From IMG/VR virus record IMGVR_UViG_3300045738_001973, positions 1-52,561 of that record: a stretch of DNA of 52,561 nucleotides; one strand, written 5' to 3'. Positions 3,964 through 49,575 of this stretch are shown in pieces. The position numbers and the translations under genes are program-made. Source of the stretch: a virus. Lineage: Duplodnaviria > Caudoviricetes. Every line of letters begins with the position of its first letter. Within the stretch, counting starts at the first letter, position 1. The notes beneath the pieces are model-generated. The model made no database searches. It was not told the origin of the DNA and saw only the letters and a program-made list of their open reading frames with translations.

Positions 3964-4055
3964 GGCTTGCGACCTTGTTTAGCAATGCGGTGCCGATAGA
4001 TTAATACCAATAAAATCAGTAATACCTCGACAATAAGTAGCCACCAGCCATTCAT
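3960..4055 (-). CDS. 31-aa single-pass membrane peptide (not in ORF track)
   Basis: MNGWWLLIVEVLLILLVLIYRHRIAKQGRKP*; ATGA overlaps with both neighbours. Confidence 0.65.
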   Translation of the reverse strand: MNGWWLLIVEVLLILLVLIYRHRIAKQGRKP

Positions 4056-5524
4056 GCTGCACTCGCCTTGCGCAGCGCCTGCGCCATATTTACCCCCACT
4101 AAAGCAGCGGCAACCGGTGGGCAAACGCTATTCCCACATTTCGCTATTTGCTGAGTTTTAGTTACCGGTTTGCCACTCGCGTCGCGGTTAAATATGTAAT
4201 TAACCGGAAAGCCTTGGGCCGCGAATAGCTCGTGGGGTTGGAGCATACGCATACCAATATCAACGATCTGATATTGCTCACCGCGAACGGTAACCAGCCC
4301 AAAGCGATCGCGGGTTGAAATGGTATGGAGTGGATCGTCAAGGCTCATACCGTCTCGATCATTGCCGTAATACTTCAAAAGGAAGGCTCTCACCTCGCCG
4401 ACATGGTTTCCGCCAGAGGTAAGCGTAGGTATCGGGTCGGTAACGGCTTGGCCAAACTGGGTGTTGCGCAGCTTGACTAGGTGGCTAGTTACCAAGCTGT
4501 GGTGGTCTTGCTGGGTAATGGTGCCAATCGCCTGCTCTACCCCGTGGCCGGTAACGCCGCCGTAGTGCTTAGCCAAAAATGCCGACACCAAACCGATTGG
4601 GGCAGAACCACCGGGTCTTTGTACGTAGCTGGAAGCGGTTACGGTATGTAGTGGGCTTGCTATATCGTGGCCAATAGAACCACTACGAAATTTGGTAACG
4701 TGCGGCGATATCGCCAATGGATCTGCGCCGTTAACAATAAAGGGCTTAGGGTTATCGATGACAAAACGCTGCAAACCCTTAGCAATCCTTCTAAGGGTGT
4801 TCTCTGCCAAGGGCTTTTTACGGCCGAAAATACTTGGGCATGGCAATGTCCAATCGATAATGTCGGCGGCGGTACGGTACTTTTTTAAACCTGGGCCATG
4901 AGTTGGTTTTGGCCACAGAATGGGCTGGCCATCACACCGCGCCACCATAAAAAGGCGCTTTCTTATGGTTGGGGCTCCATAGTCGCAGGCCCGCAATGTT
5001 TTAAATTCCACCTTGTAGCCTTGCCGCCCCAGAGCATTTTTAAAGCTTTGAAACGTTTGCCCTTTGCGTTTAGGGCAGGGTCTTAGGTCGCCATTTTCAT
5101 CAGATATCAGAGGCCCCCACGTTGTGAATTCCTCTACATTTTCCAGCATGATCACACGGGGCTTTACCGTGGCCGCCCAGCGCAACACAACCCACGCCAG
5201 CCCTCGTACTCGAGGCGAAACCGGTGCGCCGCCTTTGGCTTTTGAGAAATGGCGACAATCCGGACTAAACCATGCCAGACCAACCGGCTGCCCTTGGCAG
5301 GCCTCGCGGGGGTCAACCTCCCACACGCTTTCGCAATAATGCTTAGTGCAAGGATGGTTGACCGTGTGCATGCTAATGGCTTGGGGGTCGTGGTTAATCG
5401 CGATATCTACTGGCCGCCCTAGCGCCATTTCAATCCCGGTAGACGCCCCGCCGCCACCGGCAAAGCTATCAATTAGTAGCTCGCCCATATTTAAACGGAG
5501 CTGTGGCACGGTTCGGTAATTCAT
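4052..5524 (-). CDS. DNA cytosine-C5 methyltransferase (orphan)
   Basis: DSFAGGGG (motif I), SPDC (IV), ENV (VI), RKR (VIII), GNSV (X). Confidence 0.93.
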   Translation of the reverse strand: MNYRTVPQLRLNMGELLIDSFAGGGGASTGIEMALGRPVDIAINHDPQAISMHTVNHPCTKHYCESVWEVDPREACQGQPVGLAWFSPDCRHFSKAKGGAPVSPRVRGLAWVVLRWAATVKPRVIMLENVEEFTTWGPLISDENGDLRPCPKRKGQTFQSFKNALGRQGYKVEFKTLRACDYGAPTIRKRLFMVARCDGQPILWPKPTHGPGLKKYRTAADIIDWTLPCPSIFGRKKPLAENTLRRIAKGLQRFVIDNPKPFIVNGADPLAISPHVTKFRSGSIGHDIASPLHTVTASSYVQRPGGSAPIGLVSAFLAKHYGGVTGHGVEQAIGTITQQDHHSLVTSHLVKLRNTQFGQAVTDPIPTLTSGGNHVGEVRAFLLKYYGNDRDGMSLDDPLHTISTRDRFGLVTVRGEQYQIVDIGMRMLQPHELFAAQGFPVNYIFNRDASGKPVTKTQQIAKCGNSVCPPVAAALVGVNMAQALRKASAA

Positions 5525-6925: not shown

Positions 6926-7152
6926 TGTGCATTCTCCTTTCTATACCAGCCCATTTGGTTCATATCGTCATCACTTAACGAGGTGATTGATTCGCCCGGT
7001 TTCATAAAAACAAACAAAGTTCCTTCGGGGTATTTGCTTGCTAATTCTTTAACCGCGCGCCGGTCAAAATCACGGTTGGTTCGAATCAGCACCACGCTAT
7101 GGTCTTTTCCGGCGGCCATATCCACGCCAATAATTTCTGGTTCTTCGGTCAC
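6922..7152 (-). CDS. Hypothetical phage protein
   Basis: Overlaps the primase stop. Confidence 0.55.
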   Translation of the reverse strand: MTEEPEIIGVDMAAGKDHSVVLIRTNRDFDRRAVKELASKYPEGTLFVFMKPGESITSLSDDDMNQMGWYRKENAQ

Positions 7153-9803
7153 GCTTTGCGCTCCTTGTTTTCAAATATCCAGCAGCGCACAGATTTGCCG
7201 CTGCCGTTTTCGCCATGAATGGCCGAATTAACGGTTTTGTAGTCGAGGTATTTGTAGCGACGGCTGGCTTTTAGCAGGCGCTTTAGGTCGGCCAGCGGCG
7301 GTACTTGCTGGCGGTGGTCGGCAGCGATTTCTATGTAATGGTTTAGGTTAATGGCAATTTGGCCGGGGTCTTTGCTGTGATTTAGTTTTTGGTTAAATTC
7401 GTCGCCATTTAAGAAGTCGTACTGCTCCCAAAATTCTTGAACTATGGGGTGGTCGGCACTAATGGCCACTTGGCGCTCTGCGGCCATAGCCAAAAGCTCT
7501 AATTGGGTTGCCTTTATCTGCTCTTTGGTTATGGGTAATACCAGTTCCAAGGCGCTTACCAGCGCGCAGAGCAAACCGTGGTTTTTAGCGATACGCACAT
7601 TTTTAATGGCTTCTTGAGCCATTAGGCGTTTTTCAAATTCGGGGGTTTTATCGGCAATAAAGGCCAGAATCTCCTTTTCTTTTTTGGCGGCCTCCACAAT
7701 AAAACTGCTTACATGCTCAAGGGGCATGTGCTCCAGTTCATTAGCCAGCACCTTGCTTTCGTCGGTGTGGGCTGCGCGGGTAAAGCGCAGGTGCACTATG
7801 CGCTGCAGTACGGCTTCACTGGCTTGCACCGCGGCGTTTTGGCTAATGGCAATGGCGCCCCTAAATGGCGGTTCGTAGGTTTCGTTGCCGCCGTTTTTCA
7901 TACCACGGCTACGCACTGAGCGGCCGTTGTAGGCGGTCTTTAGTTCGTCCCAATCAAATTTTTTACCGTTGGCGGTGTCTTCGTCGCGGTCGCCCTCAAT
8001 AAGCACCACCGGCATATTGGAAACCTGCCCCATGTTGCGAGCGCGGGCGGCGGCGGTAGATTTACTGGGGTCGAAACCTTCATAGTCGCGGCGGCCCAGA
8101 AGCTTCCACAAAAATTCGATAAGGGTAGTTTTACCCGCACCCGGCTCGCCGATTACCTCAATAAACGGGAATGACTTTTGCGCATCGCGGATCTGCTCGG
8201 CAAACAGCGAACCAAACCAAAACGCCAATGCCACCACACCGCGCTCACCAAAACAGGTGTGAATGTGGTTTATCCAGTCGTTGCGGTAGTTGTCGGCGTC
8301 TTTGGCAATGGTGAGGTGCACAGACTGGCCTAAGCTCTTAATGGCCAGTTTGCCAGTGTCGAAATAGTCTTCATCATTTAGCGCATAGGTGCGGCCATCT
8401 TTAATGGCAATGTCGTTAAGCACGTACACGCCAAACTCTTTGCTGTAGCCAATGTAGTCGATGGTGTTAACGGTTTTAATGTTATAGAGCTGGTGGCGCG
8501 CTATGGCGTCTAAATGCTGGCTGGTGCCGGTGAACACGCTACCCGCTGCCACCGACAGCAGGCGCTTTTTAAATTCGCTGGCGCTCGAAAGCTGGCCGCC
8601 GGTAAAGGTGTTTTTAACCGCTGCACCGCTGTGCGGAAAGGTAATGCGGGCGTAATACCAGCTTTCGTCCGTTATCGTGTTGGCCTGAAAATACAAAAAC
8701 TGAAAATAGCAGTTGGCAATTTCGATAATGCTGCCTGATTGCTTTAGCGCTTCGTCGCGGCGCTCTTTGTAGGTCATGCCCTCGGCTTCTAATAAGGTTT
8801 GGTAGGCCTTTTCGTATTTGTCTAAATTAAGGCTGAACCAATACAGGCGGTTTTTATATTCAAAATTAAATTCACGGCGGTTGGTTTTGTTGTAAATCAG
8901 CAATGACTTTTCGCTGGCGCTCTCGGCAATTAACAAGCTGCCGTGGTAGCGGTATTGCTCAAAATCTTTGTCGGTTAAACGGCCCTGCATGTGCAGGTCA
9001 TTCCAGTCGTTTTTGTATTTACCGCTCTGTTTGATGGTAACGGCAGCCGATTTTAAGCCCGCCTCTTTGGCGCGCTCGTGGTGCTTTATGGTCCATTTTC
9101 GGCCTGCGGTGTCGCCGTCTAGGCCCCACACCCAATTCACATTCTTAGCGTTGTGCTCGTCAAAAAATTTGGCTGGGTAGTTGGTACAGCCCAGTAGCGC
9201 GGCCGATTTATAGCCGTTTAAATAAAGGGCAATGGCATCAAGTATGCCCTCTACCAGAATTACCTCGTCGCCCGCCTCGACATCAACACCAGGGGGAAAC
9301 CACGCAAGGCCTTTGTAGTCGCCATTAAAATGGGCTTTGCGTTTTTTCTTTTCGCCGTTGTCGTTAATCCATAGCTCTTCTACAAAACGGTCGAAGTAAA
9401 CGCCGGGGGCGATCATAAACCGCACGGTGGCGGTGCCCGAGGCGCCAATACACTGTTGGCTCCACCAGCGGTCTTGCTCATACCAGCCAGCAATACGGGC
9501 AATATCAAAGCCCCGCGCCTGCATTAAGTAGGCGTCTGCCGTGGCCTTGGGGTTTGTATCGGTGGGCTGGTAACGCTCGTTGAATTTTTCAAAGGCGTCG
9601 GGGTAAAGCTCTTTTACGCTCTCTGACCAGGCACAGTTATTTTCACGCCCGCAGCGCACTACCCACGGTGATTCGGCTTTAGTGTACAGCTCTTTTTTAT
9701 TGCAGCTGGGGCAGCGCCCAGCCCGCAGCCAGCCCCCGCGCTCTTTAAAGTCAAAGTCGCGCAGCAGCCGGTTGGTTATGTCTTTATGTACTGCAGGAAT
9801 CAT
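7149..9803 (-). CDS. P4-alpha-like primase-helicase (Zn finger, Toprim, P-loop)
   Basis: CPSC..CGR..NC, VEGILDA, DGD and GEPGAGKT motifs. Confidence 0.88.
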   Translation of the reverse strand: MIPAVHKDITNRLLRDFDFKERGGWLRAGRCPSCNKKELYTKAESPWVVRCGRENNCAWSESVKELYPDAFEKFNERYQPTDTNPKATADAYLMQARGFDIARIAGWYEQDRWWSQQCIGASGTATVRFMIAPGVYFDRFVEELWINDNGEKKKRKAHFNGDYKGLAWFPPGVDVEAGDEVILVEGILDAIALYLNGYKSAALLGCTNYPAKFFDEHNAKNVNWVWGLDGDTAGRKWTIKHHERAKEAGLKSAAVTIKQSGKYKNDWNDLHMQGRLTDKDFEQYRYHGSLLIAESASEKSLLIYNKTNRREFNFEYKNRLYWFSLNLDKYEKAYQTLLEAEGMTYKERRDEALKQSGSIIEIANCYFQFLYFQANTITDESWYYARITFPHSGAAVKNTFTGGQLSSASEFKKRLLSVAAGSVFTGTSQHLDAIARHQLYNIKTVNTIDYIGYSKEFGVYVLNDIAIKDGRTYALNDEDYFDTGKLAIKSLGQSVHLTIAKDADNYRNDWINHIHTCFGERGVVALAFWFGSLFAEQIRDAQKSFPFIEVIGEPGAGKTTLIEFLWKLLGRRDYEGFDPSKSTAAARARNMGQVSNMPVVLIEGDRDEDTANGKKFDWDELKTAYNGRSVRSRGMKNGGNETYEPPFRGAIAISQNAAVQASEAVLQRIVHLRFTRAAHTDESKVLANELEHMPLEHVSSFIVEAAKKEKEILAFIADKTPEFEKRLMAQEAIKNVRIAKNHGLLCALVSALELVLPITKEQIKATQLELLAMAAERQVAISADHPIVQEFWEQYDFLNGDEFNQKLNHSKDPGQIAINLNHYIEIAADHRQQVPPLADLKRLLKASRRYKYLDYKTVNSAIHGENGSGKSVRCWIFENKERKA

Positions 9804-13130: not shown

Positions 13131-13886
13131 ATGATTAGCGAAGAGATCACACGGATCGAAGAGCGGCTTAAGGATTTGGGTTTAACGAAAACGGAATTTG
13201 CAATAGCGCTAGGCGCGCCAGAAGACAATGCCAGCTCCTACTACAACAACTGGCGCCATAGAGACTTACCAAAATCACGACTAAGTGCCGCGGCAGATTT
13301 TTTAAATACCACCATTGAATGGATTACTAGGGGCGAGCGCAAACTAAGTGTGGCTACCGACAGCTGCCCACGGCAAGAAATTGCTATTGAATACACCCGA
13401 CGAATACACGCCGACGGCGGTATTACTGCCTGCGTCACCGTCAATGACCGAAACTTTTTTATTGTTGGCATGCACGAAGACATGGTGCAAGTCACCCTGT
13501 CTATTGTCACCGTGGCGGGCGGCATAAAAGCGGCGGCTATTAAAGAAATGATCGAGCTCGGCGTACTGTCTAGGCGCATCAAGTTAAGCGCTAACGAATA
13601 TGATCGGTTTATCCGGGGCATGGTGTCGATCGATGATTTGTTTAAGGGCGGCCGTGAAAGTTACTGGGGCCGTATAGAAATAATCACCCACGACAGTATT
13701 TACACGCCAGAAGTGAGGGACAGAGGCGGTAATTACGTAGAGCTGCCCAGCCAAATAGGGGTGATATTAGAGCTGTTTAAAACCCAGCAAATCGATTTAG
13801 ACGACTTAATAACCTTAGAACAAATTGCCTGTCGGCTGGCGGCTAAAGCGGATTACATTGCGGCCAAAAATTTAATTTCAAAGTAA
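13131..13886 (+). CDS. CI-like repressor (N-terminal XRE HTH, unrecognised C-terminal domain)
   Basis: GLTKTEFAIALG..NNW..AADFLNTTIEWITRG. Confidence 0.75.
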   Translation: MISEEITRIEERLKDLGLTKTEFAIALGAPEDNASSYYNNWRHRDLPKSRLSAAADFLNTTIEWITRGERKLSVATDSCPRQEIAIEYTRRIHADGGITACVTVNDRNFFIVGMHEDMVQVTLSIVTVAGGIKAAAIKEMIELGVLSRRIKLSANEYDRFIRGMVSIDDLFKGGRESYWGRIEIITHDSIYTPEVRDRGGNYVELPSQIGVILELFKTQQIDLDDLITLEQIACRLAAKADYIAAKNLISK

Positions 13887-13894
13887 ATTTTCGC

Positions 13895-13982
13895 TTGCAA
13901 TAACACTCAATGAGTGTATTATAGGAACTGTAGACAGCAATACCGCTGCTACGAAATCACGAATAGATAGGTGATAAAATGA
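13895..13982 (+). promoter_or_regulatory. Promoter/operator/leader copy 1
   Basis: TTGCAA-16-TATTAT with the palindrome ACACTCA-A-TGAGTGT (13903-13917) in the spacer; RBS AGGTG. Confidence 0.8.
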
Positions 13983-14260
13983 CTACTTACACAATCCCAC
14001 AAAAAATGTCTGGCACTGGCTCAATCCACGACATCGCCAGCGACATGCAAGACCGCGAAATCAAGTTTGGCAAAGGTTGCAAATACGCAGTGGTGCTGTC
14101 CAGCTACTACGGCGGCAAAGGCTACACCACCCACCAAACTGCCGAAGCGGCTGCCCGCGCAAGCCGTAAAAATAAAGACTATTCCCACGCCATTATCGAC
14201 ACAGATGGCAACCGGTACACCACTGACTATGACAATCAGCTGGTAAAGATTACCGAATAA
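13979..14260 (+). CDS. Small protein, anti-CRISPR candidate (93 aa)
   Basis: First gene after the operator-bearing promoter and directly upstream of the Aca-like HTH. The function is inferred from context only. Confidence 0.6.
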   Translation: MTTYTIPQKMSGTGSIHDIASDMQDREIKFGKGCKYAVVLSSYYGGKGYTTHQTAEAAARASRKNKDYSHAIIDTDGNRYTTDYDNQLVKITE

Positions 14261-14290
14261 ACCACCCCGCCGCCCACTAGGGCGGCAACC
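14260..14290 (+). repeat. 31-bp hairpin repeat copy 1
   Basis: GCCGCCC-ACTA-GGGCGGC; 29/31 identical to 14813-14843. Confidence 0.85.
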
Positions 14291-14302
14291 ACCGAGACCA
14301 CT

Positions 14303-14521
14303 ATGATCACCCAACCCACACCCGAACAAATCAAAGCCGCGCGCACTGCTGCTGGCGACTCGCAGGCCCAGGCGGCTGAGCGTATTTATGCGCCCAGCTA
14401 CCGCACTTGGCAAAATTGGGAGAAAGACGGCGCAGGGTCGCGCGCCATGCCGCTGGCCGCGTGGGAATTGTATTTAATCAAGACAGATCAAACCGATAAA
14501 ATTATTTTTCAAAAAGATTAA
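14303..14521 (+). CDS. Small HTH protein, Aca-like repressor
   Basis: TPEQIKAAR..SQAQAAERI..RTWQNWE..MP..WEL, a pattern resembling Aca3-type HTHs. Confidence 0.75.
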   Translation: MITQPTPEQIKAARTAAGDSQAQAAERIYAPSYRTWQNWEKDGAGSRAMPLAAWELYLIKTDQTDKIIFQKD

Positions 14522-14529
14522 GAAAGGGC

Positions 14530-14618
14530 TTGTTTTTACACTCAATGAGTGTATTATTGGAACTGTAGACAGCAATACCGCTGCTACGAAAATCACGAAT
14601 AGATAGGTGATAAAATGA
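14530..14618 (+). promoter_or_regulatory. Promoter/operator/leader copy 2
   Basis: 14538-14618 equals 13903-13982 except for one substitution and one indel. Confidence 0.8.
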
Positions 14619-14776
14619 AAATTGAAAAAATGTACATGAACATCGAGACCGGATCAGTTGATACCCGTGACGGCTGGGACTACGAGAACGAATCTGGCGA
14701 GACTGTGAACGCGGTTGATCTTGGCGAAGTTGTCGAGGTTAAAAAGGACGACAAAGGCGAGTGGGTCGAAGCATGA
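14615..14776 (+). CDS. 53-aa acidic protein, anti-CRISPR candidate (not in ORF track)
   Basis: MKIEKMYMNIETGSVDTRDGWDYENESGETVNAVDLGEVVEVKKDDKGEWVEA*; same RBS and ATG context as 13979. Confidence 0.7.
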   Translation: MKIEKMYMNIETGSVDTRDGWDYENESGETVNAVDLGEVVEVKKDDKGEWVEA

Positions 14777-14812
14777 CCCCAAGCGATAAATTCGAAGGCG
14801 TTTCACACCACT

Positions 14813-14843
14813 AACCACCTCGCCGCCCACCAGGGCGGCAACC
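14813..14843 (+). repeat. 31-bp hairpin repeat copy 2
   Basis: GCCGCCC-ACCA-GGGCGGC. Confidence 0.85.
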
Positions 14844-14865
14844 CTCCTCACCCAAGGCCACCAAC

Positions 14866-15813
14866 ATGCAGCCCACCGAGCACCTACACGCCCTAGGCCG
14901 TCGCTACCCCAGCGCATGGCAGCAGATTAACGATCTGCGCCGGGATAGGGGCAAAGACATACCAGACTGGCCAGCGTGGTGTTTTTTGCCGATGGGCGGG
15001 TTTTACGCGATTGTCAGTGCGCAGCATCAAACACAGCAGCTTGGTTTGCAGCAGATCCCCGACGTGTCGGCGCTGGCCGCACTGGGTACGTGGCGTTATA
15101 GCCAAGGTATTTACCGCTTTGATTCGCAAGCGCAGCAGGCGCTGGCGAGCACATTACTGCACGGCGAGATGCCGACGGACGTTTTGCTACGCCTGCCGGA
15201 GTGGTGTTTGTACATCGAGACGCCGGATCAGCAGTGGTTTGGCCAGCCGCTGCACGGCTTTTGGTGTCATTTAGAGAGCGACGCTAACACGCAGCGCCGT
15301 GAGTTACGCTTTTTGCTTAACCATGGCGACAGCCTCAGCCCGCAAATTTTGCACTTGGGCGGCTGGACAGTGACCGAGGCAGTAGATAGATACATAAGCG
15401 AGGCAAAACGCCAAGGCCGCGCCGCCGGCATAACGCTACCCGCCGACGCCAGCGAGGCCGTGGAGCACATCAGCGCGCAAATACAGCCGCTACTCGCGAT
15501 GATTTTGTACTTGTGCAGCGACGAGCCAGAGATTACAGACCGCGAGCACCCCGAGCAAAGGCCAAGCCGCCCACGCCCAACACGCACAAAAAAAGGTTGG
15601 AAGCTCTTTGCGCCAAAAGCCCCAAAAATTTGGCAAGTAGGCGAGCAACTCGGCGAGGCGCTGCGCAAAGACCACGGCGCAGACCCCACCGGACGCAGGG
15701 TAAAACCACACCTACGCCGCGCCCACTGGCACGGCTTTTGGAGCGGCCCCCGCGACGGCGAGCGGCGGTTTGGGTATAAATGGCTGCCGCCGACGGTGGT
15801 AGCCGCAGACTAG
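14866..15813 (+). CDS. acrVA2: AcrVA2-family anti-CRISPR protein
   Basis: WRYSQGIYRFD, LPEWCLYI, GFW, LYLCSDEPEI and PHLRRAHWHGFW match the AcrVA2 motifs in order; similar length. Confidence 0.85.
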   Translation: MQPTEHLHALGRRYPSAWQQINDLRRDRGKDIPDWPAWCFLPMGGFYAIVSAQHQTQQLGLQQIPDVSALAALGTWRYSQGIYRFDSQAQQALASTLLHGEMPTDVLLRLPEWCLYIETPDQQWFGQPLHGFWCHLESDANTQRRELRFLLNHGDSLSPQILHLGGWTVTEAVDRYISEAKRQGRAAGITLPADASEAVEHISAQIQPLLAMILYLCSDEPEITDREHPEQRPSRPRPTRTKKGWKLFAPKAPKIWQVGEQLGEALRKDHGADPTGRRVKPHLRRAHWHGFWSGPRDGERRFGYKWLPPTVVAAD

Positions 15814-41349: not shown

Positions 41350-41379
41350 AGGGTTCGAATCCCTCCCTCACCGCCATTT
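41350..41379 (+). repeat. Prophage att core (distal copy of tRNA 3' end)
   Basis: Identical to 304-333. Confidence 0.95.
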
Positions 41380-42951
41380 TGATATGAATATGGGCACTTG
41401 CAAAGAGGTGCCCATATTTCTATCTACCCTCGATATAATTGCTGCAAGGGGCAGAAGCCCTCCGCTAAACTTCAGCTTTGTCGGATAGACGACAATCTCT
41501 TTCACAATCGCGACTAATAGCGCTTTAGTAGCCTCATTGTCATCTCCTAGTAGTATATTCCTTGCCGCTTGCGCAAATAGCGAGATATGGCTTTGACCAA
41601 ATTTTTTAATTGGCAACTGCATGCGCTCCTTTAAACTTCTCGCCTCCATCTGAAGCCCATCTTGACTTCGCTTTAACCGACCAATTGTGTCTTTTGCCGT
41701 ACTGTCTAGCTCCAGCTCACCTTTTGCAATGTGCATGATTAGCTTTTCGTATTGATCCGTCACTTTCGAGGATTTAGCCTGAACAGCTAATAGACGCTGC
41801 CGATCCGCCCTAAACACTTCTTTGTGCTTCACTTTTAACGTCTGTACATACTCAGACAGGGCCTCCTCCGGCATTACTAGCTCCGCAATCAATTCTTTAA
41901 CCTTATTTTCTAGCGGTACTTTTGGAAGATTGGGGCACGTACATACGTTAATATTTTCCTTTATTCTTCGAACACATCTGTAATACCAATAATGTCCGCT
42001 TTTTCCGGAAGATAAGACAAGGTTTTTCCTACAGGAAGAACATTTAAGTAAGCCGGTCAAAATAGAGGGGCTACGGATTCCTTTTTCTTCTGTATTTTTT
42101 TGGGGGGCTCGCTGTTTAAGCTCCGCCTGAACTCTATTGAATACTTCCACATCCAAAATTTGAGGATTTTTATAATATATGGGCTTATAGTCCGCTCGTT
42201 TAATACGGCGATCAGCTGCGTATTCTCGTTGAGCGATGTAAATTGGGTCGGTGAGCACTCTATGAACCTTCATTGTCGTCCAATTCGAAACGTTTGCAGG
42301 GATCCCTGAAGTATTAAGGTAAGTCGCAATTTTTTTAACACCGTAGGGCCGCCCACAATTACCTTCAATTGCTAATCGGTAGATATCCCTTACAATTTCG
42401 GCTTGCTCACTGTTAACTACCAAGATTTTTTTGCTTTTATCCGAGTCTGGCGCAGGAACGGATTTGTACCCATAGGGGACTGCACCACCGACAAAGAAAC
42501 CTTTCTCTACCGCCTCAGCTTTACGATCTGAAACGACTTTACTATTTTGTCGGCTTTGATGCTCATTAACTGTCCCTAATAAACTTTTAACCAAATGCGC
42601 TAATGCGGGATCTGTGGGAAATGATTCCGTCACTGAAAAAAATTCAAAACCTAGGTCAGCAATTAAGCTGTCGGAAACTAACCGCTTCTGCTCATTCCGC
42701 GCGAAGCGACTAAGGGAATAGACGACTACTCCCTGGTACTCAACATCACTAGACTGAATATCACTAAGCATTTGTTCCAGCGCTGGTCGTTTCCCCTTGA
42801 AGGCTGAATATCCACCCTCAACATAATGCTTGACCACTACATGATCGTTTTGCGAAGCCCATTTTGTAATAGCCAATTTCTGGCCATCTAGGGAGTCGCT
42901 CTCTGTTGCCTGACGAGAAGTAGAAACCCTAATATAAGCTGCTAATTTCAT
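41368..42951 (-). CDS. Large serine recombinase (integrase)
   Basis: YIRVST catalytic Ser, SLSRFAR, recombinase domain, Zn-ribbon C..C/C..C and coiled coil. Confidence 0.93.
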   Translation of the reverse strand: MKLAAYIRVSTSRQATESDSLDGQKLAITKWASQNDHVVVKHYVEGGYSAFKGKRPALEQMLSDIQSSDVEYQGVVVYSLSRFARNEQKRLVSDSLIADLGFEFFSVTESFPTDPALAHLVKSLLGTVNEHQSRQNSKVVSDRKAEAVEKGFFVGGAVPYGYKSVPAPDSDKSKKILVVNSEQAEIVRDIYRLAIEGNCGRPYGVKKIATYLNTSGIPANVSNWTTMKVHRVLTDPIYIAQREYAADRRIKRADYKPIYYKNPQILDVEVFNRVQAELKQRAPQKNTEEKGIRSPSILTGLLKCSSCRKNLVLSSGKSGHYWYYRCVRRIKENINVCTCPNLPKVPLENKVKELIAELVMPEEALSEYVQTLKVKHKEVFRADRQRLLAVQAKSSKVTDQYEKLIMHIAKGELELDSTAKDTIGRLKRSQDGLQMEARSLKERMQLPIKKFGQSHISLFAQAARNILLGDDNEATKALLVAIVKEIVVYPTKLKFSGGLLPLAAIISRVDRNMGTSLQVPIFISKWR

Positions 42952-42952
42952 C

Positions 42953-43153
42953 TCACTGCTCCTTTTTATCTTGTTTTAAGGCCAGTAAATCTTGATTTGT
43001 TCTTGCCTCAAATTGGAGACTATTAAACTCATGAACGATTGCATTGAGATTAAGATCAAGCAATTTACAGATAGTCTCGTGGGTGAAAGCCAGATGAATC
43101 TCTGCACTAACATCTTGAGCGACCCTTAAATGCACCTTTTTGTTCATGGTCAC
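42953..43153 (-). CDS. Small protein abutting the recombinase
   Basis: RBS AGGAG; the stop is 1 nt from the recombinase ATG. Confidence 0.55.
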   Translation of the reverse strand: MTMNKKVHLRVAQDVSAEIHLAFTHETICKLLDLNLNAIVHEFNSLQFEARTNQDLLALKQDKKEQ

Positions 43154-43477
43154 TCTCCTGATATGAATCTGCTAACAGATGATCAAAAAGTATCCAATTA
43201 CAGAAGGTTAATCAAGGGGGGATATTAATAAATTCTTTTTAAATTCAACAAGTTAGGATCTAAAAAATAAAAACATTGCATTAACTTTCCTAAAGATCAT
43301 TAGTAATCAGAAGGTTAAACCAAGTTAATCTATTAACTGATATTACGAATGGATATAGATTTATAATTAAAATAAAGGTTGTCGGCTGTGTATATAGAAA
43401 ACTTGTATAAGAATCTATTGCTACCGCCTATATTCAAAGCCCTTTAGTGCCGATTTAAAACATTGTTGTTGCCTCGG

Positions 43478-43774
43478 TTACGGCCACCAAGGGTCTCCTA
43501 CCCATTTTTGTACGACTTTCAAATACCTGCCCTCAAGACAGGAAACCGCATCAAATAGATCAAAAGTAATTCGATTTTCGTGTAGCCATACACCCACTAA
43601 AAAACATAGCATAATTCCCTCTGTCTTCGAACAAGTGTAAAGGTAGGCATCTACTCTATCGAGCAAACACTCCCGACTAGAAAGATCCCAGAATGGCAGA
43701 AATTCAGGCAGGTCGTCTTCCAGTAACACAGCAAATCTAGCCTGACCCAAGCTTAAATTAATATTTAGCTCCAC
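43478..43774 (-). CDS. Hypothetical protein
   Basis: RBS GAGG; ends W..DPWWP. Confidence 0.6.
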   Translation of the reverse strand: MELNINLSLGQARFAVLLEDDLPEFLPFWDLSSRECLLDRVDAYLYTCSKTEGIMLCFLVGVWLHENRITFDLFDAVSCLEGRYLKVVQKWVGDPWWP

Positions 43775-43833
43775 AATGCACCTCTTTCAGGTCACTAAGA
43801 TACTGCCCAGCAGGTCGGAATTTAAAGACTTCG

Positions 43834-44238
43834 TTATCTCGTCTCGGGAAATAAAAACGTATTCATGTCTAGATCCTCTGGAGTTAATTTATAACCATCA
43901 GAAGTAAGCATGATCGTCTTACCAACTTCAATGTCATAGGACGCTGGGCGTTCACTAGAGAATCGACCTGGGCCTTGGAGTTTGTAGCAAGTATTTTGGG
44001 TCTCAACGGTTAATGTATCGATATCAAGAGATATTATCAGCGAAGACCGCATTGCAGCTCCCGGCTTCCATCGCCCTAATCTATCGTCAACAACGGAGCC
44101 AGTAAAAAATCGGGGACTAAAGCTAGAGTCTTTTTCGAGCTGTTGAACGATGAAATCTACTGGTAGGTGATCACGTACATCGTGTACACACCAGGACTCA
44201 ATTATCCCCCCAAAAGGCTTTGTGCTCTCCTGCGCCAT
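43834..44238 (-). CDS. Hypothetical protein
   Basis: D.LGRW.PG..MRSS..ETQNT.Y.L.GPG. Confidence 0.6.
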   Translation of the reverse strand: MAQESTKPFGGIIESWCVHDVRDHLPVDFIVQQLEKDSSFSPRFFTGSVVDDRLGRWKPGAAMRSSLIISLDIDTLTVETQNTCYKLQGPGRFSSERPASYDIEVGKTIMLTSDGYKLTPEDLDMNTFLFPETR

Positions 44239-44380
44239 TTTTTTGACTCACGAAAATTAGTTACGAATGTTATATGCTAAAAAACCGAAAATGTCAAAAA
44301 AATGAATAAAAACAATAATTTACGGAATAATAACTCACAGCATTTACTCGTACCAAGGTAAGCGCTCAATTAACCACGCC

Positions 44381-45913
44381 CTATACGAGGGACACATTCC
44401 AGGGTAGCAATGCCTGCAATTCGTCATCACTGGATATGCTTGGCAGTCTTGCAAACACCTCACGCAAATACGCGTAAGGTTCAAGGCCATTCGCTTTCGC
44501 GGTTTCGATCAAGCTATAAATAGCGGCGCTGGCGTGGGCACCTCTGGGCGTCGCGCTGAACAGCCAATTTTTGCGGCCAATAACGAAGGGGCGGATGGCG
44601 TTCTCCGCAAGGTTATTGTCGATGTTGACGTCGCCGTCTTCTGTGTAGGCTACGAGCTTTTCCCAGTTCTTATTGAGATAACCCAGCGCCGTACCGAGTA
44701 GGCCTTTGGGCAAGGTGCTGTGTAGTGTTTTGTCCAGCCACTCCCTAAGGGCGCTGAAGATCGGAACACTTTTCTCTTGGCGTAGCTGGCGGCGAGTTTC
44801 GCTGCTCGCGTCTTTCGCCTGCTTTTCGATGGCGTACAGCTTGGCAATATAACTGATCGCCACATCGGCTTTGCCGATGCGGGTAGTCTTTTTGTCTTTA
44901 GATGTCCCTGCCTTTTGAGCATCAACGAATTTACGGCGTGCGTGTGCCCAGCACCCCACATGGCTAATGTCGTCTTTGCGTCCAACGGCATGGTAGCCCG
45001 CATAGTCATCGGTTTGCAGGTAACCACTAAAGTCCTTTAGTAATTTTTCCGCCACGCTGCCAGCGCGGCTCGGCGCATAATCATATAACACGATGGAGTG
45101 ATCGGGGGCGCCACTGCGCCTGACCCACATATACGATTGGCTACTTGCGGGCCTGTCCGGTTCGTTTAGCACCTGAAGCGGCGTTTCGTCGCACTGGATG
45201 ATTTTGCCGCTGCGAAGTTCGCTATCAAGCTGGGCGATAAGTGGCGCGATCAATTCACCGCTGCGCATCATCCAATTGGCGAGGGTGTTGCGGGGGATAT
45301 CAATCTCCATCCGTTTGAAGATGGCTTCTTGGCGGTGCAGTGGCAGCGCATCATGGTATTTCGCGGTAGCGATATACGCCAGTAGGCCTGCACTCGCATT
45401 GCTTTTTGGAATGGGCTGCGCCGGTAATGCGGCGGTACGTACCGTCGATTCACACGCTTTGCAGGCGTATTTCAGGCGGGCGTGTACTAAGACGTGGACG
45501 GTTGCAGGAATGATATCCAGCTGCTCGCTGGTGTCTTCGCCAATATGCGTTAACGCACAACCGCATTCACAGACTTTGTCGGCATCAGCCAGATCATGTT
45601 CGATACGAACGTGCGGCAAGTCAGCGGGTAACGATTTACGACCACGGGATTTGCGACGCTCATACTGGATTGTTTCGGTTTCGGCGTCATCCGTGTTTTC
45701 GTCAAGGTCGTCTTCGGGAACAGGCTCAGCGGCTTCGGCTTCATTAAACAGCTCGGCCTGCCCATCCGACTTCTCGCTGCTGGCCGCAAAGCGTTTATGC
45801 CTGAGTAAACGCACTTGTGCTTCGAGTAACGAGATGCGTTTATCCTTCTCCAAAAGCAAAGCTTTGAGGCTGTGGATATCGTCAGAAGAAGGGGTTGATG
45901 GTCGCGTCGTCAT
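44381..45913 (-). CDS. tnpC: IS66 transposase
   Basis: DET, LQTD.YAGY, CWAHARRKF, IDNN.AENAIRP, LLPWN. Confidence 0.96.
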   Translation of the reverse strand: MTTRPSTPSSDDIHSLKALLLEKDKRISLLEAQVRLLRHKRFAASSEKSDGQAELFNEAEAAEPVPEDDLDENTDDAETETIQYERRKSRGRKSLPADLPHVRIEHDLADADKVCECGCALTHIGEDTSEQLDIIPATVHVLVHARLKYACKACESTVRTAALPAQPIPKSNASAGLLAYIATAKYHDALPLHRQEAIFKRMEIDIPRNTLANWMMRSGELIAPLIAQLDSELRSGKIIQCDETPLQVLNEPDRPASSQSYMWVRRSGAPDHSIVLYDYAPSRAGSVAEKLLKDFSGYLQTDDYAGYHAVGRKDDISHVGCWAHARRKFVDAQKAGTSKDKKTTRIGKADVAISYIAKLYAIEKQAKDASSETRRQLRQEKSVPIFSALREWLDKTLHSTLPKGLLGTALGYLNKNWEKLVAYTEDGDVNIDNNLAENAIRPFVIGRKNWLFSATPRGAHASAAIYSLIETAKANGLEPYAYLREVFARLPSISSDDELQALLPWNVSLV

Positions 45914-45937
45914 GACGCGTATTATACCAAAAGACCG

Positions 45938-46294
45938 TTAGCTAACCGAGTCAAAATACAAGGTTTCATGCGGTTTATTGCGCCAAATATCCAAGCCATC
46001 GAGCAAGAGGTTTAAGTCGCGGCCATCGCGTAATTCATAGCCTGACTCGCACTGGCGAGGCCATTTAAAGCGCTGCTTTTCTAGGCGCTTATACCAGACC
46101 ACAAAACCATTTCGCTCCCAATACAGGAGTTTGATTTTATCTCGGCCACGATTGCAAAACACAAACAAGACTTCCATCATCGGCGAGAGCGCCAGCTCGT
46201 TTTCAACCAGCGCGGCCAAGCCATTGATGGACTTGCGCATATCTACCGGGGCCATGTACAAATAGACCTCAATATTGGATGTCGGCCGCAGCAT
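45938..46294 (-). CDS. tnpB: IS66 accessory protein TnpB (start 46294)
   Basis: PVDMRKSINGL, KLLYWERNGF..YKRLE; TGATG overlap with tnpA. Confidence 0.93.
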   Translation of the reverse strand: MLRPTSNIEVYLYMAPVDMRKSINGLAALVENELALSPMMEVLFVFCNRGRDKIKLLYWERNGFVVWYKRLEKQRFKWPRQCESGYELRDGRDLNLLLDGLDIWRNKPHETLYFDSVS

Positions 46295-46593
46295 CAGTTC
46301 GATTCCCGAAGGAGTTGCAGCACGGCGGGCAACACGACAGGCAAATCGCTGGCGGATAATTCCAATCGAACGCCGAGCGGTAAATTCATTATCATACGAG
46401 ATGAGGCTGGCATGCCGCCCAGTTTTAATAATTTTGCTGAGGGCGCTTTTGCGGGGCTCAATCGATTGCGCCAATACGCGAAGTTATGAAATTTGATCTC
46501 ATGCTGCTTGCAATACGCGGCTTGGGATAGTCCGCTGCCTTGCCAGGCGGTGACATGGTCTTGCCAGAATTGGGCTTTGTTGATGGTGGTCAT
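46294..46593 (-). CDS. tnpA: IS66 accessory protein TnpA
   Basis: W..SGLSQAAYC....F.YWR. Confidence 0.9.
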   Translation of the reverse strand: MTTINKAQFWQDHVTAWQGSGLSQAAYCKQHEIKFHNFAYWRNRLSPAKAPSAKLLKLGGMPASSRMIMNLPLGVRLELSASDLPVVLPAVLQLLRESN

Positions 46594-46777
46594 GAATAGC
46601 TCCTCAGTTAAAAATTGAAGAGTAAAGCCGTAGTGGGAAGATTATTAGATGTGGTTTATTGAGCGCTTACGTACCAAGGACATATTGCCAAGATTACTCG
46701 TTCCTTAAATTAGATCGGTAAAACAGAAAGATACCAAGGGGGGGAGCCTTCAAATCGGCAATCCTCCCGTGAAAGCA

Positions 46778-46846
46778 AAATCCATGAGATCTTAATCGCT
46801 AAATCCATGAGGTCTGAATCGCTAAATCCATAAAGACTGAAGCGAG
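46778..46846 (+). repeat. Three tandem 23-bp imperfect repeats
   Basis: AAATCCATGAGATCTTAATCGCT / AAATCCATGAGGTCTGAATCGCT / AAATCCATAAAGACTGAAGCGAG. Confidence 0.85.
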
Positions 46847-47205
46847 TGCTTGCGACGCGGTGGCGTGCTTGGAGAGGGAAGTAATCCTTGAGTGTTCATA
46901 ATAGGTGTCCACTTGAAATGAGGTGGACACCAAGGCTACTAGCTTAAAATCGAATGGAAAGGTGAGTTCGCCGGACGGTTACATACTAAGTTCGGGAAGG
47001 CGTACTTTGGAGCCTGTAGGAAAAATGAACGAACCGTGTCTTTACCGACAACCTCGCAATGACACTGGTTTTTTTAGACTCAGTAATGAGCGAAATTATA
47101 GCTGAGTGTGTCTGCACAATAGCTTCTTCCGGAAGACCTAGATCTGCACTAACTAGATCAACTGTCCCTGGATTCGACCAACATGCGCTTGTAGGATTTC
47201 CAGAT

Positions 47206-49464
47206 TTAAGATCTATCGAAAAGATCATCGATGACGTCGGTCGCTGACCCCATACTATATTTCTGGTCTCGATATCCTTCGAAATGTTGATCTTCGTGCA
47301 TTGCCGACTTCATGTTGTATTGAATTATCTCGTCAATATCACAGCTTTCTGCTACAACTTCCACATCGACATCATCGAAGGCAACTCCGAGGTCTGCAAA
47401 CCTATCATGCACGTAATCGAATATTTCAGAGTGATCACAACTTTCACTGTGATACGCACTACTCATGACACCTTCTTCAATAACATCCCTTGTTATGTCT
47501 TCAGACAAATACTCAATGTAAATCTCTTTAAATTTTTCGGTCAAATTAGATGGAGGTACATCTACGGCAGCTACGAGATTTGAGAGTGGAACAAACTCAT
47601 CCATGTCCTTTTCGTAATCATAAACCCAACCCTTCAGCTTTTCCTTAAAGACCGGGTCACCCGAACTGATTAGACCCAATGTGAATGACCAATAAATAAA
47701 CTCGAAATAATCGATCCCATAGGAACAAGGATCAGAAGATAATGCTGACCTTATTAGGGTTTTAATATAATCAAGAACTATACCTTTTGGTGATAGTAAA
47801 AAAGCACCACAAGACAGTAGTCGAAGCTTATAACCATCTATTTCGCTTCCATTTTTTAATATAGATAACCTAGTAAGCTGCGATTCAAGAAGGTTGCAGT
47901 AATATTCTTGGTCAATTACAGAAGATACCTTCAAACTTTTTAAGTTGGAAATCGATTCAGGTGTTTTTAAACTAAAAAGTAATTCATCGATATAATTAAA
48001 GTCACTTAAATAATTAGAAATGACAAAATCTGCAATTGACGGATTAAATAGATCATATGAAATTTTATCACTGCTAAATACACTTCTGTTCAGTAGTGCG
48101 CCAACCAATAGCCTTTCGACAGAATCAAAACTTCTATTTTTAATTCCTATTAAATTACTTGACAATATCCCTGCGTAGACATCTCTTAATCTTGACTCTA
48201 ATAAAGATGTTCCATTTAGAGATACTGCGACAACAACATGCTTACATATGTCATCAACCTGAACCTCAAGAACATTCTTCCATATATCTTTAGGATTAGA
48301 TAACGTTGTGTGTATATAGTCCCAATACTCACTAGATCTTATACCCGGAAGGCGATGATGGTCAGTAATGAAAGATATAAGTCGAGGGTTGAAATTTTTG
48401 TGCTGAATGATTTTAAGGTATCTCTTTCCTTCATAGAGCTGATCTATATAGTCTTCCTCTAGATCACCGAACCAAATGTGGTTATATAGAATTTTGGCTT
48501 TATCGATATCAGTCAAAGAGGAAATTGATAATTCATATTCATTCCTATCCACCTTCTTGATATCAAAAAGATCACTAAGCCTCTTACCTTGATTCAAGAT
48601 GTTTGATCGCGACGTAAGAATAAATCTCTTCTTCTTATCTTTTTCGATTCTCTTAATGAAATTTATTACATGAGAATCTTGATGCGAACCAAGAGATAAT
48701 AAAAAATTTCTTCCTAAAAAATCATCAAAATAGAAAATCTGTTTTGACTCTTCACTATATAGTTGTTCAGCCTCATTCAATGAGTTTTCTATAAAACAAA
48801 ACTCGTACCCATTAGCCGTGTAGTACTGGCAAAGTTGATCAGCCAAGGATGTTTTACCAACACCAGGAGAGCCTGTAATTATTACAGAGTGAACTTTTTC
48901 AAGTTTTTCCATGGCTTCGGTATGACTTTTAGTTACTACATACCGATTTGATTCTTCAATGATCTCTTCTAGCTTATACTTACTTCTACCAATAATCGCA
49001 GAGCTCAATATCGTTGCAAGAACATTGGTGCTCGAAATCCATAACTTATAATGTTTTCTTTCTACTTCCATATTTTTCGATAGAATATCATTAAGATCTT
49101 CGTTTCCAAAAATATCTGATTCAATTAATATGTATGGAGATAGCAGCGTCTTAATTTTGATCTTATTTTCTCTTGATAACTCCAAAGATGTTACAAATAT
49201 ATAGCGCTTCGGACTAAGCTTTTTTACTTTTTCTAATTCGGTATTCTCTATAGACCTGATTAGCGCGGAAATCCCAGACTTTATCCAATGCTTACATTGG
49301 ATAACAACCTCTTCCCCTTCTGAAGAAAAAAAGCGTCCGTCCACGCCGCCGTCTCGTCCAACTTTAAATCGCTCAACCTTTGAACCTAAATGGCATGTCA
49401 ACAGATCTACTGAAAGATTCTCAAATTCTTTATCGTTCAAGCTACTAAAATCATAATCTGACAT
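47206..49464 (-). CDS. Mrr-like restriction endonuclease fused to a STAND-type NTPase
   Basis: EFE..DGGVD..IQCKH nuclease motif; GSPGVGKT, FDDFLG, TSR, FNPR. Confidence 0.8.
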   Translation of the reverse strand: MSDYDFSSLNDKEFENLSVDLLTCHLGSKVERFKVGRDGGVDGRFFSSEGEEVVIQCKHWIKSGISALIRSIENTELEKVKKLSPKRYIFVTSLELSRENKIKIKTLLSPYILIESDIFGNEDLNDILSKNMEVERKHYKLWISSTNVLATILSSAIIGRSKYKLEEIIEESNRYVVTKSHTEAMEKLEKVHSVIITGSPGVGKTSLADQLCQYYTANGYEFCFIENSLNEAEQLYSEESKQIFYFDDFLGRNFLLSLGSHQDSHVINFIKRIEKDKKKRFILTSRSNILNQGKRLSDLFDIKKVDRNEYELSISSLTDIDKAKILYNHIWFGDLEEDYIDQLYEGKRYLKIIQHKNFNPRLISFITDHHRLPGIRSSEYWDYIHTTLSNPKDIWKNVLEVQVDDICKHVVVAVSLNGTSLLESRLRDVYAGILSSNLIGIKNRSFDSVERLLVGALLNRSVFSSDKISYDLFNPSIADFVISNYLSDFNYIDELLFSLKTPESISNLKSLKVSSVIDQEYYCNLLESQLTRLSILKNGSEIDGYKLRLLSCGAFLLSPKGIVLDYIKTLIRSALSSDPCSYGIDYFEFIYWSFTLGLISSGDPVFKEKLKGWVYDYEKDMDEFVPLSNLVAAVDVPPSNLTEKFKEIYIEYLSEDITRDVIEEGVMSSAYHSESCDHSEIFDYVHDRFADLGVAFDDVDVEVVAESCDIDEIIQYNMKSAMHEDQHFEGYRDQKYSMGSATDVIDDLFDRS

Positions 49465-49575
49465 TGATATGCTGGCCTTAATATTGGATTATGCTTGCAA
49501 TCGAACCCGGAGCGAAAGGGCGAAGTGCACACCACGTTGCCTCGATTGCACGTTTTGTTATGTGCCGCTCTTCGC

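Follow-up and report, generated by a model that had tools for sequence, protein, structure and literature searches.

The virus record IMGVR_UViG_3300045738_001973 of IMG/VR (52,561 bases, analysed at full length and called the window here) contains two tandem cassettes with a common plan, each made up of an Aca10-type operator/promoter, a leader, a small gene, a GC (guanine-cytosine) hairpin and a second gene. Cassette 1 holds ORF93 and then a gene for an Aca10-like helix-turn-helix (HTH) protein; cassette 2 holds ORF53, the short open reading frame (ORF) with which this report is concerned, and then a gene of the AcrVA2/FinQ family. An earlier note on this DNA had picked out ORF53 as a candidate anti-defence protein of the DNA-mimic anti-CRISPR (Acr) kind. 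We find that ORF53 is a genuine and widely conserved gene for a small acidic phage protein, and we weigh below the case for an anti-defence role. The features of the two cassettes are as follows.

13895..13922, plus strand: promoter 1, with -35 TTGCAA, a 16-nucleotide (nt) spacer and -10 TATTAT (promoter scan)
13923..13978, plus strand: leader 1 (5' untranslated region), near-identical to leader 2; predicted fold -15 kcal/mol, z -4.7
13979..14260, plus strand: ORF93, first gene of cassette 1, of an uncharacterised conserved small-protein family
14268..14290, plus strand: GC hairpin 1, 7-bp stem and 4-nt loop; predicted fold -16.5 kcal/mol, z -4.6
14303..14521, plus strand: gene for the 72-residue HTH protein, Aca10-like putative repressor of both promoters
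14530..14557, plus strand: promoter 2, with a degenerate -35 TTGTTT at the equivalent place and -10 TATTAT; palindrome at 14538-14552
14558..14614, plus strand: leader 2; predicted fold -15 kcal/mol, z -4.95; AGGTGA at 14605-14610
14615..14776, plus strand: ORF53, an acidic protein of 53 residues with a predicted fold made up mostly of beta strands, from an uncharacterised family of phage proteins
14821..14843, plus strand: GC hairpin 2, a copy of hairpin 1
14866..15813, plus strand: AcrVA2/FinQ-family protein of 315 residues, second gene of cassette 2, 89 nt downstream of ORF53

ORF53 runs from an ATG at 14615 to a TGA at 14774-14776 (53 codons), and the composition of its product (6 aspartates, 9 glutamates, 5 lysines and 1 arginine; pI 4.13, net charge -9) reproduces the count of 15 acidic against 6 basic residues given in the earlier note. 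The AGGTGA of leader 2 ends 4 nt before this ATG, an equivalent AGGTGA lies 4 nt before the ATG of ORF93, and the two ATGs occupy the same columns of a pairwise alignment, which bears out the statement that ORF53 starts at the equivalent ATG of a duplicated leader. A minimum ORF length of 60 residues would hide ORF53; it is present as a called gene in a public protein collection (P0001).

A search of 5.8 billion proteins returned 55 homologues besides the window's own protein, at 60-84% identity and E values of at most 2.3e-4, most of them 48-64 residues long. When 40 of these 56 family proteins are aligned, ten columns are invariant (M8, N9, G13, W21, Y23, V31, A33, V34, V39 and V42) and twelve further columns are at least 90% conserved. 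The conserved core reads YMNxxTGSVD..W.Y....G..VNAVDLGEVVEV, so that the motif YMNxxTGSVDT...W..., which had been put forward as a means of finding homologues, is indeed that core. A profile built from the 40-sequence alignment matches 333 representative clusters at E of at most 1e-3, and 184 at E of at most 1e-10, among 1.84 billion. For analysis at the nucleotide level and of gene neighbourhoods we used 37 family loci from IMG/VR and the best 80 of 140 from JGI metagenomes, some contigs being present in both sets. In all 51 distinct gapless alignments of the window's ORF53 with these loci the proportion of nonsynonymous differences (pN) is lower than that of synonymous differences (pS), with a median pN of 0.24 and a median pS of 0.77, the latter a value at which synonymous sites are saturated. 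A Shine-Dalgarno-like motif lies upstream of 61 of 88 homologues, and acidity is family-wide (median net charge -10, range -14 to -6, among 52 members of at most 66 residues). Inverted repeats with arms of at least 7 were found upstream of 16 of the 88 homologues and in 30 of 400 windows drawn at random from the same set of loci, a control that is unmatched for intergenic DNA.

The second cassette repeats the control region of the first, 13893-13956 corresponding to 14528-14591 (92% identity) and 13954-13995 to 14590-14631. Inside the spacer of promoter 1, and overlapping its -10 element, is the perfect palindrome ACACTCAATGAGTGT (13903-13917), which occurs exactly twice in the window, once per promoter copy; two or more matches were found in none of 100 shuffles. 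Promoter 2 was absent from the promoter-scan list, and its -35 and -10 elements were placed by reading the sequence. According to PMC9410881, the Aca10 protein of Pseudomonas citronellolis (PDB 7XI5) binds a 19-bp palindrome within the TTGCAA-N16-TATTCT promoter of acrIC7-acrIC6-aca10, and its R44 is critical for DNA binding. By our own comparison, the 19 bp of the window centred on its palindrome are identical to the Aca10 site at 14 of 19 bases.

The second gene of cassette 1 encodes an Aca10-like protein. This 72-residue HTH protein matches the Aca10 structure at E 3.1e-9 (40 bits), as against 0.056 for Aca3, and phrog_7950, a "transcriptional repressor" family, at 1.8e-5; it has an arginine aligned with R44 of Aca10 and an alanine in place of G49. 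Since another HTH family, scoring below its cut-off, is the top match in NCBIfam, we call it Aca10-like. A relative 59% identical to it on an IMG/VR contig (L201) has three 15-bp ACAC-N7-GTGT palindromes upstream (700-840), which is consistent with this pattern being the operator type of the HTH family. The pattern was not found in L009, one of the contigs discussed below that carry a window-like HTH gene, and the exact promoter/operator patterns of the window were not found in viral or genome contig collections. The L201 gene lies near an integrase, with no obvious acr-like gene upstream. An aca-type HTH gene together with a putative operator for its product inside the promoter would make this, judged from sequence, a locus of the acr type.

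Further structure is duplicated along with the promoters. Both leaders (13925-13985 and 14560-14621) are predicted to form the same two hairpins, the second of which pairs AUCAC with GUGAU over the Shine-Dalgarno sequence and may thereby add a layer of translational control. The two inter-gene hairpins are stable and have no U-tract on the plus strand; the hairpin motif is present exactly twice in the window, and two matches were found in none of 100 shuffles. A search of Rfam with 13700-15000 gave no match.

The gene that follows ORF53 encodes a homologue of AcrVA2, as the earlier note had recognised. The 315-residue protein aligns with AcrVA2 (PDB 7ci1) over residues 67-312 at E 3.6e-23, its N-terminal 66 residues remaining unaligned, and it matches phrog_6160 at 1.7e-63; distant homologues occur in Moraxella, Shewanella ("AcrVA2"), Erwinia and other phages. 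Residues W79, D89, H286, R288 and H291 of AcrVA2 are described as functionally important in a preprint, and the window's protein keeps the residues aligned with them (by an offset that we worked out ourselves) as well as the PH.RR.HWHG.W block, so that it is probably active on some target. The same preprint describes homologues of AcrVA2 as occurring mostly where Cas12a is absent and as including the plasmid fertility inhibitor FinQ, with a possible role in conflicts between mobile elements. We therefore use the label AcrVA2/FinQ-family and do not take the protein to be a proven Cas12a inhibitor.

A separate line of evidence comes from proteins in which an ORF53-type domain is joined to a known anti-CRISPR. 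A Pfam scan of 68 of the 150 listed family representatives found two, P0092 and P0085, in which the ORF53-type domain is followed by an AcrIC5 domain (PF22147; 81.4 and 49.9 bits, respectively, with a cut-off of 27). Residues 42-96 of P0092 match the solved AcrIC5 structure 7yhr at E 6.3e-13 over nearly the whole of its 60-residue chain, and a search with P0092 brought up two further full-length fusions, P0201 and P0202, the latter from a cluster of 11 members that come from separate contigs and sources. In all four proteins the ORF53-type domain is intact, and the AcrIC5 part starts where the last hairpin of ORF53 would be. A fifth form, on an IMG/VR contig (L142), is a fusion of AcrIC5 with a variant of the domain and stands directly after an HTH-type ORF. 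ORF53 itself had no match to the AcrIC5 family, and hhalign gave the ORF53 family profile a probability of 0.12 against the AcrIC5-type protein P0203; by these sequence and profile comparisons ORF53 is not an AcrIC5, and because the two are not homologous the fusions are true two-domain proteins. In addition, contigs L136 (1176-1622) and L137 (665-1111) carry an Xre-type HTH and AcrIC5 in one frame, which looks like a self-regulating AcrIC5.

Variant domains are also joined to HTH-like sequences. Proteins of about 124 residues from Klebsiella phage BUCT541, Edwardsiella phage EPP-1 and an Enterobacter IncFII plasmid have a C-terminal variant of the ORF53 domain, with hhalign probabilities to the family profile of 97.0 for BUCT541 and 96.4 for EPP-1. 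Their N-terminal halves have HTH matches in Pfam that fall below the curated cut-offs, and they are annotated as "MerR family" in BUCT541 and as "helix-turn-helix domain-containing" in the plasmid. Searches of INPHARED phages and PLSDB plasmids gave no full-length matches other than weak ones (E 0.03-0.7), and those examined (H3, H6 and H46) are variant domains fused to an HTH-like part. BUCT541 and the plasmid share a two-gene unit in which a hypothetical gene of about 66-68 residues precedes the HTH-like/variant gene, and a similar unit is present in EPP-1, where the first protein has 103 residues (L119 2592-3171, L120 2258-2964 and L204 2597-3174).

Known families offered little help with ORF53 itself. 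AlphaFold2, given the 40-sequence alignment, predicts six short strands and one short helix with a mean predicted local distance difference test (pLDDT) score of 91.7. This model had no significant structural match in PDB by Foldseek (best E 2.0), and a wide VIA-align search gave a best Z of 2.5; its match in BFVD is only an uncharacterised 51-residue member of the family itself (E 6.6e-3), and the ESM Atlas places unnamed clusters with it at 0.75. By sequence, ORF53 matched nothing in PHROGs or NCBIfam, nothing in Pfam other than a chance hit to Peptidase_M23 (E 0.022), and nothing among the chains of PDB, whether the query was the sequence or the profile (best E 0.47-0.68). Wherever a family member carries a name, that name is "hypothetical protein". 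Literature searches on AcrVA2, AcrIC5, Aca10 and 7XI5, which were confined to these neighbouring families, brought up no description of the family; as the family has no name to search by, its absence from print is not thereby established.

The arrangement in the window resembles several known systems and departs from each. AcrIC5, as far as published accounts of it go, is a validated type I-C inhibitor that is acidic and broadly distributed, blocks binding of target DNA and is placed on the PAM (protospacer-adjacent motif) site of Cas8c by AlphaFold-type prediction. ORF53 is likewise small and highly acidic, belongs to a broadly distributed family and has a domain type found fused to AcrIC5, whereas it lacks sequence or profile similarity to AcrIC5 and is predicted to be mostly beta strand. 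Like the acrIC7-acrIC6-aca10 operon, the window has a homologous HTH gene and a TTGCAA-N16-TATTNT promoter with a palindrome of ...CTCA-N-TGAG... core inside it; unlike that operon, it duplicates the promoter, leader and inter-gene hairpin to give two cassettes, its small proteins ORF93 and ORF53 are unrelated to AcrIC6 and AcrIC7 by Pfam and PDB searches, and it belongs to a marine P2-like phage. What the AcrVA2 loci of Moraxella phages have in common with it is a prophage setting in which the AcrVA2-family gene has small known or candidate acr genes as companions, whereas the window's protein is only about 26-28% identical to the Moraxella phage homologues and aligns with AcrVA2 over 67-312 as given above. 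Finally, there is precedent for the fusions: AcrIE4-F7 is a natural Acr-Acr fusion, and AcrIIA1 and AcrIF24 are described as HTH-bearing anti-CRISPRs in PMC9410881. Both parts have demonstrated functions in those proteins, whereas the ORF53-type domain is a candidate.

We prefer, at a probability of about 0.5, to read ORF53 as an anti-defence (anti-CRISPR-like) protein that is made from an Aca10-type repressible promoter and binds a component of host immunity. Both cassettes would be transcribed early, each from a sigma-70 promoter with an operator and through a structured leader, with a strong ribosome-binding site for the small gene and weak initiation at the second gene; the Aca10-like HTH protein made from cassette 1 would then shut both cassettes off. 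ORF53 would bind a host immune protein directly, and its acidic surface may occupy the nucleic-acid-binding site of that target. At similar odds, the family as a whole is a candidate anti-defence family, found by association and domain fusion and absent from Pfam, PHROG, NCBIfam and PDB. The proposal of an anti-defence role made in the earlier note is thus strengthened by the conservation of the gene, by an acr-type locus with an Aca10-like repressor, an operator and an AcrVA2-family neighbour, and by the AcrIC5 fusions, and it is weakened by the contexts of the family in other genomes described next. Of the description as a DNA-mimic Acr, the acidic character stands, and from it nucleic-acid mimicry would be a reasonable guess; homology to AcrIC5 and a structural match were both looked for and not found.

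A number of observations weigh against an anti-defence role. Flanks of up to 5 kb, with ORFs from a simple caller, contained an AcrVA2, ORF93 or AcrIC5-type gene in none of the 117 other family loci, and an HTH gene like that of the window in only three of them (L009, L079 and L080), which form one lineage. The 116 neighbouring ORFs (two on each side at 32 viral loci, after five near-duplicates had been dropped; PHROG and Pfam searches) fell repeatedly into families of replication initiators, DnaC/IstB-like loaders, ParB-like proteins, MazG, methyltransferases and recombination or nin-type proteins; helicases were also present, and HTH_3 matched just two. These neighbours indicate that the family usually lies in early, replication-side accessory regions and does not keep consistently to acr-aca operons. 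For an anti-CRISPR, 60-80% identity across phages of 35-60% GC is unusually high and could point to a conserved housekeeping target. The AcrIC5 fusions are rare (the two among the 68 scanned representatives, and one of the 80 AcrIC5 loci kept). Because AcrVA2 homologues are usually found where Cas12a is absent, a neighbour of this type is no proof of an anti-CRISPR locus. Upstream of the cassettes, and on their strand, is a cI-like repressor gene; exclusion genes, for instance rexAB of lambda, occupy the position downstream of cI.

Several of these points would suit a conserved early-region (nin-type) accessory protein without an anti-defence role, captured in the window under an accessory-gene promoter, whose target might be a conserved host factor for replication, recombination or transcription, or which might serve mobile elements in competing with one another. 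Such a protein would be at home beside the DnaC-like loaders, replication initiators, helicases, methylases, MazG and ParB of the 32 viral loci, where NinG, RusA, single-stranded DNA-binding protein and an anti-repressor also occur once each among the 116 ORFs; the very high conservation across phages of diverse GC content and the presence of two family copies in some phages (L009, L039 and L041) would fit as well, and the preprint on AcrVA2 associates homologues such as FinQ with mobile-element conflicts. It would leave unexplained both the repeated fusion to AcrIC5 domains and the placement under an Aca10-type operator beside an AcrVA2-family gene, and since anti-defence genes are found in early regions too, the neighbourhoods do not tell the two apart; we regard it as a tenable if doubtful account of the gene. 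Distinctly unlikely, in our judgement, is a role as a regulatory or partner-binding module of HTH regulators, the free form modulating the Aca10-like repressor or the lysis-lysogeny switch in the manner of an anti-repressor. The HTH-like proteins of BUCT541, EPP-1 and the IncFII plasmid point in that direction, as do a C-terminal stretch of P0069 that looks like an HTH (the scan had one HTH_17 member, which we take to be P0069) and the adjoining cI/cro-like switch. The Pfam matches of the HTH-like halves of those phage and plasmid proteins are nevertheless below curated cut-offs, most family members are free-standing and without an HTH neighbour, and Acr-HTH fusions would be expected equally of self-regulating anti-CRISPRs.

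It is more improbable still that ORF53 serves as an accessory subunit of the AcrVA2-family protein or as a device for translational coupling. Both genes belong to one cassette and are probably cotranscribed, yet an AcrVA2 homologue accompanies none of the 117 family loci; in the available text of the preprint AcrVA2 is active from a plasmid and no partner protein is mentioned; and coupling is unlikely given the 89-nt spacer with a hairpin in it. A leader peptide or AcrVA2 cofactor was rejected for the same reason, namely that the family occurs without AcrVA2 at those loci. As to whether ORF53 might be no gene at all, a chance frame in a duplicated leader, its shortness (below the usual 60-residue threshold) would have agreed with this; the 333 representative clusters, the ten invariant columns in 40 sequences and the uniform excess of pS over pN refute it, and we give this notion almost no weight.

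A broader form of the anti-defence reading is more tentative than the reading itself, and we think it about as likely as the early-region account. The YMNxxTGSVD domain would on this view be a new, very widespread module by which aquatic and enteric phages counter CRISPR or other defences. It would be used free, as tandem copies, joined to AcrIC5 in a two-headed inhibitor and joined to an HTH in a self-regulating one; its strong conservation would reflect binding to an invariant site on a common immune effector, making it a broad-spectrum inhibitor; and the twin cassette would serve as a modular landing pad under Aca10 control, in which recombination between the shared promoter and hairpin sequences could exchange anti-defence genes.

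If ORF53 is an anti-defence protein, it represents a compact (about 50 residues), highly conserved inhibitor family that current family libraries have missed and that could be used as an off-switch or probe for the immune system it targets. If it is not, gene status and a family description have still been gained for an ORF that is lost at a 60-residue threshold. The AcrIC5 fusions suggest a search route as well, in which unknown domains attached to known anti-CRISPRs lead to new ones. The twin-cassette design is a noteworthy variant of acr-aca organisation, in which one set of promoter, leader and hairpin brackets different genes, and it suggests how copies of an operator/leader unit could place more than one anti-defence operon under a single Aca-type repressor.

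The remaining observations concern other members of the family, the neighbours of ORF53 and the phage as a whole. On L009 the two ORF53-family copies (1024-1176 and 4998-5162) flank the HTH gene, and another HTH-type ORF follows the second copy; L039 and L041 likewise have two copies per contig. P0110, P0071 and P0102 have two or three matched stretches of the ORF53 domain per chain. A scan of GTDB genome contigs for the family gave 10 pattern matches, none of them a relative. ORF93 belongs to a family of 407 proteins at E of at most 1e-3, of which those listed are 62-79% identical to it; it had no Pfam, NCBIfam or PDB match and none in phage records, and the public gene call for it begins at a later ATG, giving 84 residues. 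Between ORF53 and hairpin 2 we read a mini-ORF of 13 codons (14773-14814) that overlaps the ORF53 stop as ATGA and may be the remnant of a replaced gene, and an ORF of 87 residues lies on the minus strand at 14654-14917.

The window is rated 100% complete in IMG/VR. A seawater metagenome that contains nearly the whole of this DNA may be its source. Four DNA runs yielded no more than a few contigs of 151 bases over 13165-13989 and a partial piece of 35 bases at 15636-15670, none of which covers ORF53. The phage is P2-like, its large terminase being 58-59% identical to those of P2-like Klebsiella, Escherichia, Salmonella and Ralstonia phages, and an integrase gene is at 408-1571. To the left of the cassettes the cI-like gene mentioned above (an HTH protein of 251 residues, plus strand) faces a divergent Cro/YdaS-like gene and a CII-like gene, and directly adjoining the cassettes on the right are the tail genes gpD and gpU and a tape-measure gene on the minus strand. 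The low-GC right end (41368-51468, about 34-43% GC in parts) is not P2-like; it carries a large serine recombinase, an IS66 transposase, a protein with Mrr_cat and nSTAND3 NTPase domains and an AAA_15 ATPase, and resembles a defence island, or else a second mobile element, beside the prophage. The early region encodes a C-5 cytosine DNA methylase and a large Toprim-domain protein (4052-5524 and 7149-9803).

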